A stretch of DNA of 61,170 bases from an uncultured Erysipelotrichaceae bacterium (GTDB taxonomy: Bacteria; Bacillota_I; Bacilli_A; RF39; UBA660), in the NCBI GenBank assembly GCA_902801685.1, contig CADCIZ010000003.1, positions 1 through 61,170 of the forward strand, written 5' to 3'. Positions 27,962 to 32,152 of the stretch are shown piece after piece (the first letter of the stretch is position 1; each line of letters begins with the position of its first letter). Both the position numbers and the translations under genes were made by a program. A model generated the notes under the pieces. The model saw only the letters and a list, made by a program, of their open reading frames with translations, was not told where the DNA came from and searched no databases.

Positions 27962-29005
27962 CTAGCACTCCTTCTTTAAAGCGTGTAAATATTCAATTGT
28001 AGTTTTCTTTTCTACTTCTTTATTTTTGCTTGCTTTATATCTTTTATGATTACACTCATACCTTTTATATTCACCATATTTTTTCATGATCTCTTCTATT
28101 TCTTTAAAATCCATAATACCTTCATCATTATAACTTAAAAATATATATTTAAAATTTGCATTTTTAATTAATTCTTCAAATTCCTTAGCTACCTCATTTT
28201 TTTTATTATATTTAGATTTAAATTGATTAACTCTAACTCCTGCTTTACCACTAATTTCTGGATAATCACCATAAACAATTGTTTCAAGAATGTGATAATT
28301 TGTTGCATACTTTCTTGAGTTATATGGTGGATCTAAATATAAAATATCACCTTTTATTTCTTTAATTAATTCATTAGAATCTTCAATATATACTTTACAC
28401 TTACTATTTTTATTAATAACTATATCCAAAGGTTTTAACTCCATAGTCTTTTCTGCACTTTTTTTCATAGTTTTTAAGAAAGCTTCATACACTGATGCAG
28501 TATTCGCTACTTTATCCGCTGCTTCTAATAAGCAAGCTAGTAAATAGTAATATTCATATTTAGAAATTATTTCTTTTTTATACCATTTTTCTATTGTATC
28601 TCTAATTGAATCAATTTTAATGGCATTCTCACTACTGTAATAACACCTTTCATATTTACTTCCTAATGTACCTTCTAAAGTATAATTATGATATATAAAT
28701 CCTCTATAGTTATCTAAGGCATTTAAGTATATAAAAGGATCACTAATACCAATTAATTTTAATCCTGAAAAACTAGGTATACTATTATTTTCTAAATAAT
28801 GCTTATTAAGAACAAAACTATAAAATTGAGTATCATTTGCAAGAACATCAAAACCTAATTCTTTGAATCTTTTTCCAACTACACCAGTACCTGCAAATAT
28901 ATCACAAAAAACTTTATTATCTTCACCAGCAAAATCTATAATAGACTCTTCTATAAAATCAATTATCGAATGTTTAGAACCAATATAATTCATAAATCTA
29001 ATCAC
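27962..29005 (-). CDS. N6-adenine DNA methyltransferase (D12/Dam-like class), no adjacent restriction gene
   Basis: N-terminal YIGSK, DIFAGTG (motif I), and LDPPY (motif IV). Confidence 0.85.
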   Translation of the reverse strand: MIRFMNYIGSKHSIIDFIEESIIDFAGEDNKVFCDIFAGTGVVGKRFKELGFDVLANDTQFYSFVLNKHYLENNSIPSFSGLKLIGISDPFIYLNALDNYRGFIYHNYTLEGTLGSKYERCYYSSENAIKIDSIRDTIEKWYKKEIISKYEYYYLLACLLEAADKVANTASVYEAFLKTMKKSAEKTMELKPLDIVINKNSKCKVYIEDSNELIKEIKGDILYLDPPYNSRKYATNYHILETIVYGDYPEISGKAGVRVNQFKSKYNKKNEVAKEFEELIKNANFKYIFLSYNDEGIMDFKEIEEIMKKYGEYKRYECNHKRYKASKNKEVEKKTTIEYLHALKKEC

Positions 29006-29248
29006 CTATTTCTTTTATATATAAATTATACATTATTTTTAGTAAAAATAAAAGAAAATCAACGATTTTCTTAATATATTTCAAGTAGTATCTGACATTC
29101 AACTAATTTACCTATCTATATGATTAAAATTCAATAATTATTTGTTGAAATCATTGTGTATAACATTCATTTATAGTATAATTATTTAGGGAATATCAGT
29201 TGCCTGAGTGTCTACCTCTAATCTACATAGAGAGGAGGTTTGATAAAA

Positions 29249-29341
29249 ATGAAGAAGGTAATTTTTGTTATAAAGGTTCTTAGATATCTTTCTATCATTT
29301 TGTTACTCCTAATCATAATGATTATCGTAATAAAGAAATGA
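29249..29341 (+). CDS. candidate type I toxin, 30-aa hydrophobic peptide (copy 1)
   Basis: MKKVIFVIKVLRYLSIILLLLIIMIIVIKK. Strong SD GAGGAGG. Own promoter TTGTGT-17-TATAAT (29154..29182). The 5' UTR segment ACCUCU (29214..29219) is complementary to the SD GGAGGU (29234..29239). Confidence 0.55.
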   Translation: MKKVIFVIKVLRYLSIILLLLIIMIIVIKK

Positions 29342-29441
29342 CACTTAAGCATAAAGCTTAAATGTCCGCTTATATATAGGTAGCCATTCAACTCGCAAAA
29401 ACTGAATGTTCCCTTTTTTATTTTATGCAATATCTCTTGCT
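29332..29441 (-). ncRNA. candidate antisense antitoxin RNA (copy 1); ends approximate
   Basis: Convergent minus-strand promoter TTGCAA(29471..29476)-17-TACTAT(29448..29453) with TG extension. The transcript would run across the toxin 3' UTR to a hairpin plus U-rich tract that overlaps the toxin stop codon. Confidence 0.35.
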
Positions 29442-29533
29442 ACATACATAGTAACACATATTTATTTATTTTGCAAATATAACTATCACACTATCTGTAT
29501 ATATTTCTGTTATTGTTTACATTTATAATAAAA

Positions 29534-29558
29534 GAAATTCCATTTATCTTGGAATTTC
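29534..29558 (-). terminator. hairpin terminator next to the tRNA-Lys fragment
   Basis: Perfect 9-bp stem GAAATTCCA/TGGAATTTC, followed on the minus strand by UUUUAUUAU. Confidence 0.55.
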
Positions 29559-29570
29559 GTTGATTTCAAA

Positions 29571-29617
29571 TGGTGTCTCGCAGGCGATTCGAACGCCTGA
29601 CCCTTTGATTAAAAGTC
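29571..29617 (-). pseudogene. 3' half of tRNA-Lys(UUU), duplicated (att-like)
   Basis: 47 nt identical to 31037..31083 (CCA end through the anticodon loop). With flanking sequence the repeat is 68 bp (29550..29617 vs 31016..31083) with 3 mismatches. Confidence 0.9.
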
Positions 29618-29657
29618 GACTGAAAATCGTTGAAATTCTTCAGAATAATCGCTTGTT

Positions 29658-29678
29658 TGTAGTCTACCTGTAGTCTAC
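29658..29678. repeat. 2 x tandem 11-bp repeat TGTAGTCTAC(C)
   Basis: TGTAGTCTACC TGTAGTCTAC. The same unit occurs 3 times at 30911..30942. Confidence 0.9.
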
Positions 29679-29840
29679 GGAAACAGACGGAGGCAAACGC
29701 AGAGCTACATGTATGATTTTATCTGCTTATAATAAAAAAATATATTGCCTATGACATTCATCTATAATATAATTTATTCAGGGAATATCAGTTGCCTGAG
29801 TGTCTACCTCTAATCTACATAGAGAGGAGGTTTGATAATT

Positions 29841-29933
29841 ATGAACAAGAGAGTTTTTATTATAAGAATTCTTAGATACATTGCTATCATTTTATCGCTC
29901 CTTACCACTTTGGTAATAGCTATAAAGAAATGA
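29841..29933 (+). CDS. candidate type I toxin, 30-aa hydrophobic peptide (copy 2)
   Basis: MNKRVFIIRILRYIAIILSLLTTLVIAIKK. Same 5' UTR as copy 1, nearly identical from GGGAATATCAG to the SD. Promoter TTGCCT-17-TATAAT (29745..29773). Confidence 0.55.
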   Translation: MNKRVFIIRILRYIAIILSLLTTLVIAIKK

Positions 29934-30049
29934 CACTCATTCGTTAGAATAAGTGTCTCAAAATAAGCACCTTATGGCAATTGTTGGGTAGACATTCAAC
30001 TCGAGAAAACTGAATGTTCCCTTTTTTATTTTATGCAATTTCTCTTGCT
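29924..30049 (-). ncRNA. candidate antisense antitoxin RNA (copy 2); ends approximate
   Basis: Minus-strand promoter TTGCAA(30079..30084)-17-TATTAT(30056..30061), conserved in position with copy 1. A hairpin at the toxin stop codon is maintained by compensatory changes. Confidence 0.35.
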
Positions 30050-30230
30050 ACATACATAATAACACATATTTATTCGTTTTGCAAATTTTTACCAATCTGT
30101 TTCTATTTTATAAAAATTCAAAAATGATTATAGCCTACACAGATGAACAGAGAGCTACCTGAATAATTTATTAACAAAAAAATAAGCAATCACATTAATT
30201 AATTAGTTTTTTCTCCTTTTTTAAGTTCTT

Positions 30231-30752
30231 TTATAATTCTTTTATAATTCTTTTATATCTATCGCTCTGTTTGGCATAGATACCATTTGAAAATACAATC
30301 CCCTTATCTCTAAACATATTATAGTATTCACTTATGCTTTCATAATTATATTCCCAAACAAATTCTCCACAATAAATACTTCTTTCAGAGTTATATATTC
30401 CATAGCCATCTTCATCACATGCCGAATAAAAAATCTCAATTTTACCTTTCTTATAATTTCTTATAACATCACATCTACCAGCAAATTCACGATAATACTC
30501 TTTTATATAGCTATGACTTAAATCAATGTTTTTAGCTTTACAATATTCTTCTAATTCTTGTTCTGTTTCAAAATAATTACCATGTACACTATATACTGTC
30601 ATTTCAGGAATAGGCATTTCCTTAATAGGATTAATATTCTTAGGTTCTCCATCAATAATTCTTTTAAACATTGCACCCGCTCTTTTCAAATTTTCTTTAT
30701 CTAGCATTGCTTTTGTAGTTGCCTCTGAAACATTAAATACATTCTCACTCAT
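30231..30752 (-). CDS. hypothetical protein (islet cargo)
   Basis: ORF of about 173 aa (MSENVFNV...). No motif recognised. Lies between the two TGTAGTCTAC repeat blocks. Confidence 0.6.
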   Translation of the reverse strand: MSENVFNVSEATTKAMLDKENLKRAGAMFKRIIDGEPKNINPIKEMPIPEMTVYSVHGNYFETEQELEEYCKAKNIDLSHSYIKEYYREFAGRCDVIRNYKKGKIEIFYSACDEDGYGIYNSERSIYCGEFVWEYNYESISEYYNMFRDKGIVFSNGIYAKQSDRYKRIIKEL

Positions 30753-30910
30753 TATAATTACCATCCTATTTGCTTTTCTTATAAATTAATATCATCTCTT
30801 TTTACACCAATGTCTGTAATTTAATTCTATCATACTTTTCTACTATTGTAACTGAACCATTAACTTTTTATCATTTCAGGTTAAATTCAATTCCTTGTAT
30901 TCCAACAGGT

Positions 30911-30942
30911 TGTAGTCTATATGTAGTCTACCTGTAGTCTAT
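30911..30942. repeat. 3 x tandem 11-bp repeat TGTAGTCTA(C/T)
   Basis: TGTAGTCTATA TGTAGTCTACC TGTAGTCTAT. Confidence 0.9.
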
Positions 30943-30987
30943 GCATACTAATGGAGAGGCACATGTATGCAAATTTACGTTTTTGGT

Positions 30988-31024
30988 AAAAAATAAAGGA
31001 ATCCCTTGTAATCCTTGGAATTCC
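30988..31024 (-). terminator. rho-independent terminator of the tRNA operon
   Basis: Minus strand reads GGAAUUCC-11 nt-GGGAUUCC followed by UUUAUUUUUU. Confidence 0.7.
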
Positions 31025-31036
31025 GTTGATTTCTCA

Positions 31037-31112
31037 TGGTGTCTCGCAGGCGATTCGAACGCCTGACCCTTTGATTAAAAGTCAAATGCTCTACCTACTG
31101 AGCTAGCGAGAC
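31037..31112 (-). tRNA. tRNA-Lys(UUU)
   Basis: GTCTCGC acceptor stem, anticodon loop CTTTTAA, TTCGAAT T-loop, encoded CCA. 76 nt. Confidence 0.95.
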
Positions 31113-31129
31113 GTATAATTATAAAAAGA

Positions 31130-31204
31130 TGGCTGCCTCGGCTAGATTCGAACTAGCGCATGCCACAGTCAAAGTGTGGTGCCTTACCGCTTGGCTACGA
31201 GGCA
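31130..31204 (-). tRNA. tRNA-Gln(UUG)
   Basis: TGCCTCG acceptor stem, anticodon loop CTTTGAC, encoded CCA. 75 nt. Confidence 0.95.
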
Positions 31205-31217
31205 ATAACCTTAAAAG

Positions 31218-31301
31218 TGGTGGAGGGAGATGGATTTGAACCATCGAACCCGAAGGAACAGATTTACAGTCTGCCGCGTTTGACCACTTCGCTATCCCTC
31301 C
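31218..31301 (-). tRNA. tRNA-Tyr(GUA)
   Basis: GGAGGGA acceptor stem, anticodon loop CTGTAAA, long variable arm, encoded CCA. 84 nt. Confidence 0.95.
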
Positions 31302-31346
31302 AAAAGTGGTGCCGGAAATAGGACTTGAACCCACAACCTACTGATT

Positions 31347-31970
31347 CATACTACTATAGTTTTCACTACCACATTCGTGTTTGTAGTCTGGACTTTCTCT
31401 TAACCGTATCAATTGACTTAGGTTCGTCGTATAAAGTCTCTACACTCGAGTATTTTACTCTAGCTCGGGATTGCCATATAATGAGTATTTCTTTCTATCT
31501 TTTCTACCATTTCCTATATTTGCGCCTTTGTAAGTTGCTGTTAAGGAATGGCAATTTGGGCATAAAAGAATTAAATTGTCTTCTGAATTATTCAAATAAT
31601 TTCCATCTACATGTTCAATTTCTAGCGGTATCTCATTAGTATAAGGATTCCTAATGTTCCATCCACATCTTCCACATTTATTATCATACTTTTCAAATAA
31701 ATAACGTCTGATGTGATTAGAAATTTGATATTTTCCTTTTAAACCTGATTCAATACCATTTTTCCAATTATCAATGTATGATAAATATTGATAATTTTTT
31801 TGGCACTTATTATTACAATACTTGCCATTTGAACTTTTAAGTGGCATATTACAATACAAACAATTCATTGCAATCACCTCTTATGAAGGTTTCCCCGAAT
31901 TAGCGACGTCCACTTTATAAATTTCTTTATAAAGGTGCAAGATAGTTCAAAAGTATTACTACTCTATCCC
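31347..31970 (-). mobile_element. group-I-like intron in the tRNA-Thr anticodon loop (between nt 36 and 37)
   Basis: Follows an exon-terminal U and ends in G (..UAGUAUG). Core-like strings are CCUAAGUCAA, GUCCAGACUACAA and CUAUAGUAG. About 200 nt of non-coding core are split by an endonuclease ORF. Confidence 0.7.
31455..31868 (-). CDS. HNH homing-endonuclease-like protein (intron-encoded)
   Basis: N-terminal Cys4 ribbon (CLYCN..CNNKC). HNH core EIEHVDGN...N..LLCPNCH. The ATG at 31868 follows AGAGGTG. Confidence 0.85.
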   Translation of the reverse strand: MNCLYCNMPLKSSNGKYCNNKCQKNYQYLSYIDNWKNGIESGLKGKYQISNHIRRYLFEKYDNKCGRCGWNIRNPYTNEIPLEIEHVDGNYLNNSEDNLILLCPNCHSLTATYKGANIGNGRKDRKKYSLYGNPELE

Positions 31971-32025
31971 ACAAGTCAGTTGCTCTACCAGTTGAGCTAT
32001 TCCGGCAATATATTAAAAAAATAAA

Positions 32026-32102
32026 TGGTGGGCGATATAGGACTCGAACCTATGACCCCCTGCTTGTAAGGCAGGTGCTCTAACCAACTGAGCTAATCGC
32101 CC
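32026..32102 (-). tRNA. tRNA-Val(UAC)
   Basis: GGGCGAT acceptor stem, anticodon loop CTTACAA, encoded CCA. 77 nt. Confidence 0.95.
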
Positions 32103-32123: not shown

Positions 32124-32152
32124 ACTATACCATGTAAAAGGTGGTTTGTCAA
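32124..32152 (-). promoter_or_regulatory. promoter of the tRNA operon
   Basis: Minus strand reads TTGACA-17-TATAGT with TGG extended -10, about 20 nt upstream of tRNA-Val. Confidence 0.7.

Follow-up and report, generated by a model that had tools for sequence, protein, structure and literature searches.

A group I intron with an embedded HNH endonuclease gene at position 36/37 of a Firmicute tRNA-Thr(UGU) gene, a candidate composite mobile element

The bacterial tRNA and tmRNA introns mapped in the Williams survey number 5292 and fall into 21 site classes, among them Thr.5Ug and Tyr.4Ug (Williams, bioRxiv 2020, doi 10.1101/2020.01.27.920355). Here, we describe an insert of 624 nucleotides (nt) in the tRNA-Thr(UGU) gene of an uncultured Erysipelotrichaceae bacterium (assembly GCA_902801685.1, contig CADCIZ010000003.1, positions 1 to 61,170; this whole 61,170-nt stretch is referred to as the window), which we interpret as a group I intron with an embedded open reading frame (ORF) for an HNH endonuclease. 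In isotype and loop position it corresponds to the Thr.5Ug class, and under the Williams naming it is a Thr.5Ug intron. A group I intron at position 36/37 of tRNA-Thr is already known; the evolutionary series around it is more novel, and is unproven. The initial annotation of this DNA had regarded an HNH-carrying intron in tRNA-Thr of a Firmicute as unusual, a view that needs correcting because the Thr.5Ug class had already been listed (Williams, 2020) and the HNH family was found in at least 570 genomes in our search of species-representative genomes.

The intron of the Azoarcus-type tRNA-Ile genes (Ile2.5Ug) is inserted, like that of the window, after anticodon nucleotide 36, as the initial annotation had correctly pointed out for tRNA-Ile(CAU), and in both cases P1 takes only the three anticodon bases from the exon. 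With the family described here it shares a compact core, GAAA loops in L2 and L9 and receptor-like motifs of the CCUAAG/UAUGG type in P5 and P8, from which P5 of the window itself departs. GNRA loops in L2 and L9, together with receptor motifs in P8 and P5, make up the Azoarcus architecture. Unlike the window intron, the Azoarcus-type introns are about 205 nt long, ORF-less, proteobacterial and GC-rich, and their P9 is a simple hairpin, whereas that of the window has two sub-hairpins and is in this respect closer to Arg.5Ug and Leu.3Ug. Self-splicing and structure of the Azoarcus intron are established by experiment (PMC3984707, PMC13168695), whereas those of the window intron are predicted.

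When the seed introns of Williams were searched with a nucleotide profile of our family (nhmmer), the best matches were Thr.3Ug (76.5 bits) and Arg.5Ug (74.5 bits), both nearly end to end, followed by Met.2Ug (56.6 bits), Leu.3Ug (42.1 bits) and the Azoarcus-type Ile2.5Ug (24.5 bits). Thr.3Ug and Arg.5Ug share the P9/P9a/P9b layout with the window intron, and Arg.5Ug also its loop position; otherwise these seeds, which are short and ORF-less, belong to other tRNAs or loop positions. The Thr.5Ug seed Rba53 is GC-rich, has the exon junction GGU/A and hence a GGU anticodon, and reaches 12.9 bits; since it barely matches the family profile, it represents a separate lineage.

The group I intron in tRNA-fMet of the cyanobacterium Synechocystis reportedly encodes the endonuclease I-Ssp6803I, which is of the PD-(D/E)XK type, not HNH. 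At least one endonuclease-encoding tRNA intron, that of cyanobacterial tRNA-fMet, is thus on record (Bonocora and Shub 2001, reference B105 of PMC3984707); it differs from the window in tRNA, loop position and phylum. Introns longer than about 400 bp 'may contain' genes according to the Williams preprint, which offers no analysis of endonucleases, alleles or free-standing genes (doi 10.1101/2020.01.27.920355). In phages, collaborative homing joins a free-standing endonuclease and an ORF-less intron on one target site (PMC3984707 section 12), and T4 SegB lies in a phage tRNA region (PMC6409571; reference B83 of PMC3984707). Our loci resemble the former in that a free-standing HNH gene stands beside an ORF-less intron at the presumed target in 48 Clostridia loci, an arrangement that the window, with its embedded ORF, does not share, and the latter in that HNH homologs lie inside the tRNA arrays of phage-like contigs. 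Those systems concern phage protein-coding genes or a GIY-YIG enzyme, whereas here the host gene, and the putative target, is a cellular tRNA gene and, unlike in those systems, one HNH family occurs both free-standing and embedded. According to a review of 2014, all phage introns then known resided in protein-coding genes, and no phage tRNA gene carried a group I intron (PMC3984707). Our literature search turned up no account of a tRNA intron that carries an HNH gene, of a free-standing/embedded pair of this kind or of group I introns in phage tRNA genes; on tRNA-Thr, HNH or Firmicute tRNA introns it found only the Williams 2020 preprint.

The split gene escapes both ARAGORN with default settings and the Rfam tRNA model. 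With introns allowed, ARAGORN calls c[31307,32006] in the window as tRNA-Thr(tgt) i(37,624), and the joined minus-strand exons 32006..31971 (36 nt) and 31346..31307 (40 nt) yield a tRNA-Thr(UGU) of 76 nt with the anticodon loop CUUGUAA and two G-U pairs in the T stem. The cloverleaf that the initial annotation had assembled from these two halves is thereby recovered. Its reading of a 624-nt insert that starts after U36 and ends in G likewise stands, and the junction is fixed by an intron-less allele (L097). The insert thus interrupts a bacterial tRNA gene at its anticodon loop, and joining the exons results in a normal tRNA.

31971..32006, minus strand: 5' exon of tRNA-Thr(UGU), nt 1-36, with the anticodon UGU at its end (ARAGORN with introns; the 5' part of the intron-less allele L097 has the same sequence)
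31307..31346, minus strand: 3' exon of tRNA-Thr(UGU), nt 37-76, CCA encoded (ARAGORN with introns; intron-less allele)
31347..31970, minus strand: predicted 624-nt group I (IC3-type) intron (nhmmer profile, RF00028 match of the ORF-less allele, covariation)
31455..31868, minus strand: predicted HNH endonuclease ORF, 137 amino acids plus stop, in L5 (Pfam PF01844, phrog_1271, conservation among homologs, AlphaFold model)

This arrangement is far more than chance, since ARAGORN finds tRNA-Thr(UGU) split at the identical nucleotide in 70 of the 80 loci fetched from other genomes, and since the exact joined-exon allele is present in a near-identical strain. The latter came from a survey of contigs that encode an upstream S1-domain protein identical to that of the window. 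On an otherwise nearly identical background, these contigs carry three alleles.

624 nt: intron with ORF (window, L092, L093, L095, L099)
229-230 nt: ORF-less intron (L091, L094, L096, L098, L100)
0 nt: intron-less gene (L097)

The comparison with intron-less alleles that the initial annotation had proposed is provided by L097, which reads ...ACTTGT/AATCAG..., exactly the predicted exon junction, with the two exons joined precisely. The two intron alleles differ only in L5, where about 400 nt with Shine-Dalgarno sequence and ORF stand against a few bases, and the empty allele is set apart by a small number of substitutions, located in the spacers that adjoin tRNA-Thr and in the one preceding tRNA-Lys. 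A near-identical Clostridia pair, L061 and L062, likewise lacks and carries the intron, respectively. This three-allele pattern is the one expected of gain of the element, loss of the endonuclease and loss of the intron, and the gain or loss of the element, whichever it was, seems to be very recent. The ORF-plus contigs also have about 1.5 kb of extra sequence between tRNA-Lys and a gene for a D12-class methyltransferase (27962..29005), within positions 29006-31036 of the window; this stretch is missing in the contigs with ORF-less and empty alleles. It holds an ORF of 173-180 amino acids (177 in the window, 30231..30764) for which neither Pfam nor PHROG gave a match, and its linkage to the ORF-plus allele may reflect co-conversion or strain lineage.

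A nucleotide profile built from 44 ORF-less introns (nhmmer) has only two matches in the 61-kb window, and both are flanks of the insert: 31976..31882 (model 1-99, E 5e-19) and 31488..31347 (model 97-240, E 9.5e-37). These matches are contiguous at model positions 97-99, so that the ORF occupies a single point of the model, the loop of P5. The hallmarks of group I introns, that is U-1 in a U-G wobble, an internal guide, an omega-G, a P3/P7 pseudoknot and the R and S elements, can all be recognized in the sequence. We conclude that the insert, almost certainly a group I intron, belongs to the bacterial IC3-type introns as judged from these similarities. The initial annotation had proposed that an ORF-bearing group I intron interrupts the tRNA-Thr(UGU) gene at 36/37, and this is supported by homology to IC3 introns, by covariation from P1 to P9, by a precise intron-less allele and by the full-length, sub-threshold RF00028 match of the ORF-less allele described below. 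Taken together with the embedded gene, the locus is likely to represent a composite mobile element in tRNA-Thr(UGU), made up of an IC3-type group I intron and an HNH homing-endonuclease gene in the P5 loop.

Several results tell against this reading, and those from Rfam concern its intron part. The gathering score of the group I intron model RF00028 is 50 bits, and the window with its ORF in place yields no match, neither at this score nor at E <= 10, as the model is interrupted by 414 nt of ORF within L5. The same model gave no row for 20 related loci at the gathering score, nor for 12 loci at E <= 0.01. For a search with the ORF removed, as suggested by the initial annotation, nature offers L091, the ORF-less allele of the window intron: the match is full-length (model 1-253, E 1.8e-8), and its 38.2 bits stay below the cutoff. 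The ORF-less relative L028 covers all 253 positions with 40.7 bits (E 3.3e-9), also below 50 bits, and both matches appeared only in searches of 331 nt with the laxest filters. None of the RF00028 seeds was bacterial at the time of the Williams survey, according to the preprint (bioRxiv 2020, doi 10.1101/2020.01.27.920355). We take the Rfam evidence as supportive, not decisive. The silence of Rfam on the window itself, even at E <= 10, and the occurrence of free-standing HNH genes in tRNA arrays would suit a different kind of insert, such as an HNH gene with flanking repeats, an insertion sequence-like cassette, an archaeal-type intron or a group II intron. Against this, the flanks are homologous to ORF-less RNAs of 205-244 nt that match the full RF00028 model and classical IC3 introns, a complete group I fold is backed by covariation, and the U-1/omega-G rule and the U-G wobble hold in all copies; neither a reverse transcriptase nor a transposase is present, and a group II intron would not be of this size. 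Judged from these sequence features, a cassette of another kind is effectively refuted, and we give it next to no credit.

For the group I intron, we drew a structure of 12 helices and 65 pairs from P1 to P9 (P, paired regions; L, loops; J, joining segments) and scored its pairs over 54 aligned introns, with the partners slid by 1-3 columns and 500 shuffles as controls, on five measures. Over the 54 introns 98.0% of the cells pair, compared with 34-40% in the slid controls; changes on both sides of a pair were counted at 34 of the 65 pairs (356 cells), and none of the 500 shuffles reaches the observed value on any of the five measures. No variation is seen in P4 or P7 over the alignment. In the window, 64 of the 65 proposed pairs are standard.

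31936..31973, minus strand: P1, exon UGU plus intron GGGAUAG (31973..31964) with the internal guide CUAUCUUGCA (31945..31936); 10/10 pairs standard in the window, 4/10 with compensatory changes
31913..31934, minus strand: P2 hairpin, 9 bp, GAAA tetraloop; compensatory changes in 8/9 pairs over the 54 introns
31893..31909, minus strand: P3 5' strand ACGUCG (31909..31904), J3/4 CUAAU and P4 5' strand UCGGGG; 4/6 pairs of P3 covary, P4 invariant (RF00028 alignment)
31909..31904 with 31429..31424, minus strand: P3 pairing ACGUCG/CGACGA (fold drawn on the 54 introns)
within 31903..31893, with 31470..31465, minus strand: P4 pairing UCGGGG/UCCCGA; invariant
31869..31892, minus strand: J4/5, P5 5' strand CC and the first part of L5, which contains the Shine-Dalgarno sequence GAGGUG (31880..31875); from the sequence, the ORF-less allele diverging here
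within 31892..31869, with 31480..31474, minus strand: P5 pairing CC/GG around the ORF, from the fold
31465..31480, minus strand: P5 3' strand UAUAUGG, J5/4 and P4 3' strand UCCCGA, inside the 3' end of the ORF (fold; RF00028 alignment)
31444..31464, minus strand: P6 (GCU/AGU) and P6a hairpin; 5/7 pairs covary
31424..31443, minus strand: R element, comprising P7 5' strand G-A-GACUU (bulged A), J7/3 and P3 3' strand CGACGA; P7 invariant in 54/54, P3 covaries (RF00028 R element)
31440 and 31438..31434 with 31395..31390, minus strand: P7, G-GACUU with AAGUCC; invariant (RF00028 places P7 at AGACU/AGUC)
31403..31423, minus strand: P8 with the tetraloop-receptor-like motif CCUAAG...UACGG; 4/6 pairs covary
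31390..31401, minus strand: S element, comprising J8/7 AAGAGA and P7 3' strand AAGUCC; invariant (RF00028 S element)
31350..31387, minus strand: P9 domain with P9 ACUAC/GUAGU, P9a CAC-GAAU-GUG and P9b GUAGU-GAAA-ACUAU; 8/13 pairs covary
31347, minus strand: omega-G, the final intron nucleotide; G ends 54/54 introns, and the intron-less allele defines the junction

At the 5' splice site, U36 forms a U-G wobble with the G of CUAUCUUGCA, and U-G is found in 50 of the 50 sequences with letters at this point; an extension hairpin of L1, AGUA-GUAA-UACU, lies within the P1 region. The segment GGGGAAACC corresponds to P4/J4-5/P5, the R element reads GUGUAGAGACUU, the S element AAGAGAAAGUCC, CCUAAGUC is part of the receptor-like motif in P8, and the intron ends in ...GUAGUAUG. 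The window has GAAA in L2 and L9b, and the last three bases of this tetraloop do not vary within the family. In one detail, the assignment of the core differs from the initial annotation: what is labelled there as R/P7-like (GUCCAGACUACAA) and S-like (CUAUAGUAG) comprises the end of P7 together with P9, and is not P7. A P7 made up of ACUAC/GUAGU was accordingly rejected; this helix lies 3' of the S element and covaries as P9, and RF00028 puts P7 at AGACU/AGUC.

Two features of the window depart from this fold and join the Rfam results on the opposing side: one pair of P3 is A-A, and P5 reads CCUUCAUAAG...UAUAUGG, off the CCUAAG...UAUGG receptor motif of most relatives. They would be in keeping with an intron that is real and has lost splicing, leaving the split gene as a pseudogene, with decoding by a further tRNA-Thr(UGU) encoded elsewhere in the genome. 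We consider this very improbable, given that 64/65 pairs are intact and all family-invariant positions are kept, that outside L5 the intron and the ORF-less allele do not differ at a single base, that the exons are those of the intact allele, and that at least 70 species-level genomes retain the arrangement, where the surrounding Val-Thr-Tyr-Gln-Lys or Lys-Glu-Thr array is conserved. The window intron very likely splices. ARAGORN with introns allowed reports no second tRNA-Thr in the 61-kb window, where the other tRNAs are Val, Tyr, Gln and Lys only, all of the same array; the need for splicing depends on whether the genome holds another tRNA-Thr(UGU) gene.

The ORF in L5 was described in the initial annotation as a 137-amino-acid HNH ORF with a ribosome-binding site of its own. 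This is upheld by a match to the HNH family PF01844 above the cutoff (24.2 bits versus 21.4) and by the Shine-Dalgarno sequence GAGGUG 6 nt upstream of the ATG. The 93 nt given there for the 5' non-coding part hold only up to an in-frame GTG inside the Shine-Dalgarno sequence; up to the ATG there are 102 nt. The protein also matches the phage HNH family phrog_1271 (PHROGs, E 1.7e-19) and has 2328 homologs in the protein collection searched. Among 16 diverse members, C65, C68, H86, N98, C103, C106 and H107 are invariant, in the pattern CxxC...H...N...CxxCH, and the AlphaFold model (predicted local distance difference test, pLDDT, 80) is confident for residues 1-109, followed by a disordered basic tail. 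We propose that the product is a small zinc-HNH nuclease whose catalytic and zinc residues are intact. NCBIfam contributed only partial HNH-domain matches, such as IscB and ZorE, far under their cutoffs.

The end of the ORF, GGC AAU CCC GAG CUA GAG UAA (G N P E L E stop), doubles as P5', P4' and the start of P6. Embedded homologs end in ...NPEL(G/E) because their ORF ends encode P5'/P4'/P6, whereas the free-standing proteins stop earlier. It follows from the same overlap that a translating ribosome and a folded ribozyme cannot share one RNA molecule. Some embedded homologs run through P6 into P7 with a tail ...SVETL... (AGU GUA GAG ACU UUA); these proteins of 150-158 amino acids (P0070, P0072, P0088, P0090; loci L017, L019, L029) keep their frame through P4', P6 and P7, and their tail ...NPE...(S/C)VETL... 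is the translation of the invariant R element AGUGUAGAGACUUUA. In L031, the P3-J3/4-P4 motif GCTAATTCGGGG occurs twice within the ORF-bearing intron, 36 nt apart (L031:1426 and 1462); this short duplication within the intron is probably the reason that ARAGORN misses the gene. L031 had been a candidate for a free-standing HNH locus and was rejected as such, as core motifs lie on both sides of its ORF.

The same intron and site are found in Bacilli, in Clostridia and in phage-like contigs, in different arrangements with the HNH gene. Bacilli-type loci have inserts of 615-660 nt with the ORF inside; the inserts of most Clostridia loci measure 205-244 nt and are ORF-less. In 48 Clostridia loci a free-standing gene of the HNH family accompanies the ORF-less intron, on the same strand in 44 and convergent in 4, and most of these genes start 54-140 nt downstream of tRNA-Thr. 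In L061 and L062, the one pair read at the sequence level, the free-standing HNH gene follows a terminator-like hairpin. Among IMG/VR contigs, 261 relatives of the HNH protein are encoded inside tRNA arrays, most of them free-standing beside an uninterrupted tRNA-Thr(UGU) or tRNA-Lys(UUU). The homologs in L101-L180 (e.g., L107:1501-1971 and L119:1501-1994) are 47-70% identical and mostly 0-50 nt away from those tRNAs. HNH genes in mycobacteriophage tRNA clusters have been noted, not this HNH family or its link to an intron (PMC6409571). Four phage-like contigs (L101-L104) have the HNH gene inside the same intron, which again occupies the 36/37 site of tRNA-Thr(UGU) (L101:~1390-2048, L102:~1400-2010, L103:1399-2060, L104:1399-2060). 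For L101, L103 and L104, ARAGORN reports 'tRNA-Tyr i(39,58x)', which is wrong, as the sequence is that of tRNA-Thr(UGU) split at 36/37; for L102 it makes no call of the split gene. In a midpoint-rooted neighbor-joining tree drawn without support values, the deep branches are all free-standing phage copies, and the crown separates 55 free-standing Clostridia copies from 27 embedded ones.

We think it probable, with some reserve, that the HNH protein drives homing at the 36/37 site. Its activity and target are read from context because the matches to solved folds are weak and none is a homing endonuclease. The nearest folds are the HNH domains of McrA, Cap5, DotN and Cas9-type proteins (Foldseek, best E 6.7e-3), and neither a PDB sequence search nor the Foldseek matches listed contain a solved homing endonuclease close to the protein; this adds to the points on the opposing side, as does the fact that site-specific cleavage by a protein without a characterized relative is an assumption. 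The anticodon arm is almost invariant in intron-bearing alleles, and the phage tRNA-Thr genes beside free-standing homologs have different stems, an observation compatible with the arm being the endonuclease target. Also on the opposing side are the three alleles, which could mean loss as well as gain, and the locus L061 (L061:1265-1890, compared with L062:1087-1890), where an intact intron-less tRNA-Thr(UGU) is followed by a free-standing HNH gene. The L061 protein has GTK in place of the otherwise invariant GRK, and it may be a decaying endonuclease left after intron loss or a free-standing enzyme that does not cut this site.

Such findings leave some room for an intron that splices and whose HNH protein is not, or no longer, a homing enzyme, being in decay, helping in splicing or cutting elsewhere, with presence and absence of the intron arising from ordinary recombination or from loss and gain at the RNA level. 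These possibilities, which we jointly rate as unlikely, draw on the lack of a characterized family member in the PDB and Foldseek searches, on the abundance of ORF-less alleles in the same population, from which it follows that the ORF is dispensable for the intron, and on HNH genes next to uninterrupted targets, in L061 as well as beside the tRNA-Thr genes of phage arrays. They are at odds with the invariance of the zinc and catalytic residues in 16 diverse members and the full-length conservation across the 2328 members, with the near-invariant anticodon-arm DNA of intron-bearing alleles, and with the tie of the gene to tRNA-Thr(UGU) 36/37 in three arrangements, that is inside the intron, 54-140 nt downstream, and convergent.

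For the composite mobile intron that we favor, the following course of events can be proposed. The five-tRNA array would be transcribed as a single precursor, in which U34-G35-U36 and the first seven intron bases would pair with the guide CUAUCUUGCA to form P1, placing U36 in the U-G wobble. The core would fold into P3-P8 with the P3/P7 pseudoknot, and the GAAA loops of L2 and L9b would probably dock into the receptor-like motifs of P8 and P5, as in the Azoarcus intron. Free guanosine would then attack after U36, the terminal G (31347) would take its place in the P7 pocket, and ligation of the exons would restore the loop CUUGUAA in a 76-nt product reading ACUUGUAAUCAG. The HNH protein, in turn, would nick or cut intron-less tRNA-Thr(UGU) DNA around position 36/37, and repair would copy the intron in.

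On a wider scale, one HNH family and one IC3 intron family at tRNA-Thr(UGU) 36/37 may preserve all stages from collaborative homing to a composite mobile intron, a reading of the whole that we put forward tentatively, as a possibility somewhat short of an even chance. It would lead from the free-standing genes of phage arrays, the deepest branches, through genes beside an ORF-less intron (Clostridia) and genes embedded in L5 (Bacilli, phage-like contigs) to the three alleles of one population, with the full element, with the ORF-less intron or empty. Between Firmicute classes, the element would travel by way of phage tRNA arrays, and a hop to the neighboring tRNA-Tyr, with which the exon triplet UGU is shared, would amount to retargeting by guide pairing.

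In some Bacilli, the tRNA-Tyr(GUA) gene also carries an ORF-less intron, of 226-238 nt, which follows U35 (CUGU/AAA) and has the same guide UUGCA (L018:2100-2331, L026:2051-2293, L075:2052-2291, L087:2031-2274; also L031 ~2410-2650). In L018, L026 and L087, the tRNA-Tyr intron shares 94-95% identity with its tRNA-Thr counterpart from the same genome, compared with about 80-84% for the copies of the other lineage, which suggests a local hop or gene conversion between the adjacent genes. The tRNA-Tyr gene of the window (31218..31301) is uninterrupted.

Further interrupted tRNA genes are present in phage-like contigs. L103:2321-2612 and L111:2345-2614 contain tRNA-Leu(UAA) i(36,206) and tRNA-Arg(UCU) i(35,197), with 56 and 80 bits to the intron profile. 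L171:401-1165 and L180:402-1167 have a 'tRNA-Stop(UUA)' with a 677-nt insert and a weak profile match of 24-26 bits, and in L175 and L177:1179-2149 an insert of 895 nt surrounds an HNH homolog in tRNA-Lys(UUU) and has no profile match. L044:1271-1890 (identical to L106 of IMG/VR, 95,989 bp), a contig of a Clostridia metagenome-assembled genome that is also listed as viral, contains an AT-rich uninterrupted tRNA-Thr(UGU)-like gene, inside which the HNH frame as parsed (191 amino acids) starts, with an N-terminal extension of about 60 amino acids.

The split gene is the second of the Val-Thr-Tyr-Gln-Lys array, in line with its placement inside a five-tRNA operon by the initial annotation.

31037..32102, minus strand: tRNA array Val(UAC)-Thr(UGU, split)-Tyr(GUA)-Gln(UUG)-Lys(UUU) (ARAGORN, Rfam tRNA model)
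32124..32152, minus strand: promoter-like site TTGACA-17-TATAGT preceded by TG, the best match of the region (11/12 positions; a consensus match only)

The promoter-like site lies about 20 nt upstream of tRNA-Val and thus fits a single transcript for the five tRNAs. The genes around the locus (truA, ECF-type ATPases, NifU, an S1-domain protein) are cellular, and the named genomes nearest to it in the search of species-representative genomes are uncultured Bacilli, Mollicutes-type bacteria and Erysipelotrichaceae from gut and rumen.

For the genomes concerned, at least 570 species-representative gut and rumen Firmicutes, the finding means that they may be scored as being without tRNA-Thr(UGU), because standard tRNA finders miss the gene and the curated Rfam cutoff misses the intron. 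With alleles for intron plus ORF, intron alone and the empty gene on one background, the locus offers a compact natural system for the homing cycle in a cellular tRNA gene. The convergence model of mobile-intron origin has so far rested on two phage systems (PMC3984707), and together with the Clostridia and phage relatives the locus provides a direct test of whether mobile introns originate by convergence of an endonuclease and an ORF-less intron on one site. If the HNH enzyme of about 130 amino acids is site-specific for the tRNA anticodon arm, it would be a new minimal scaffold for homing endonucleases.

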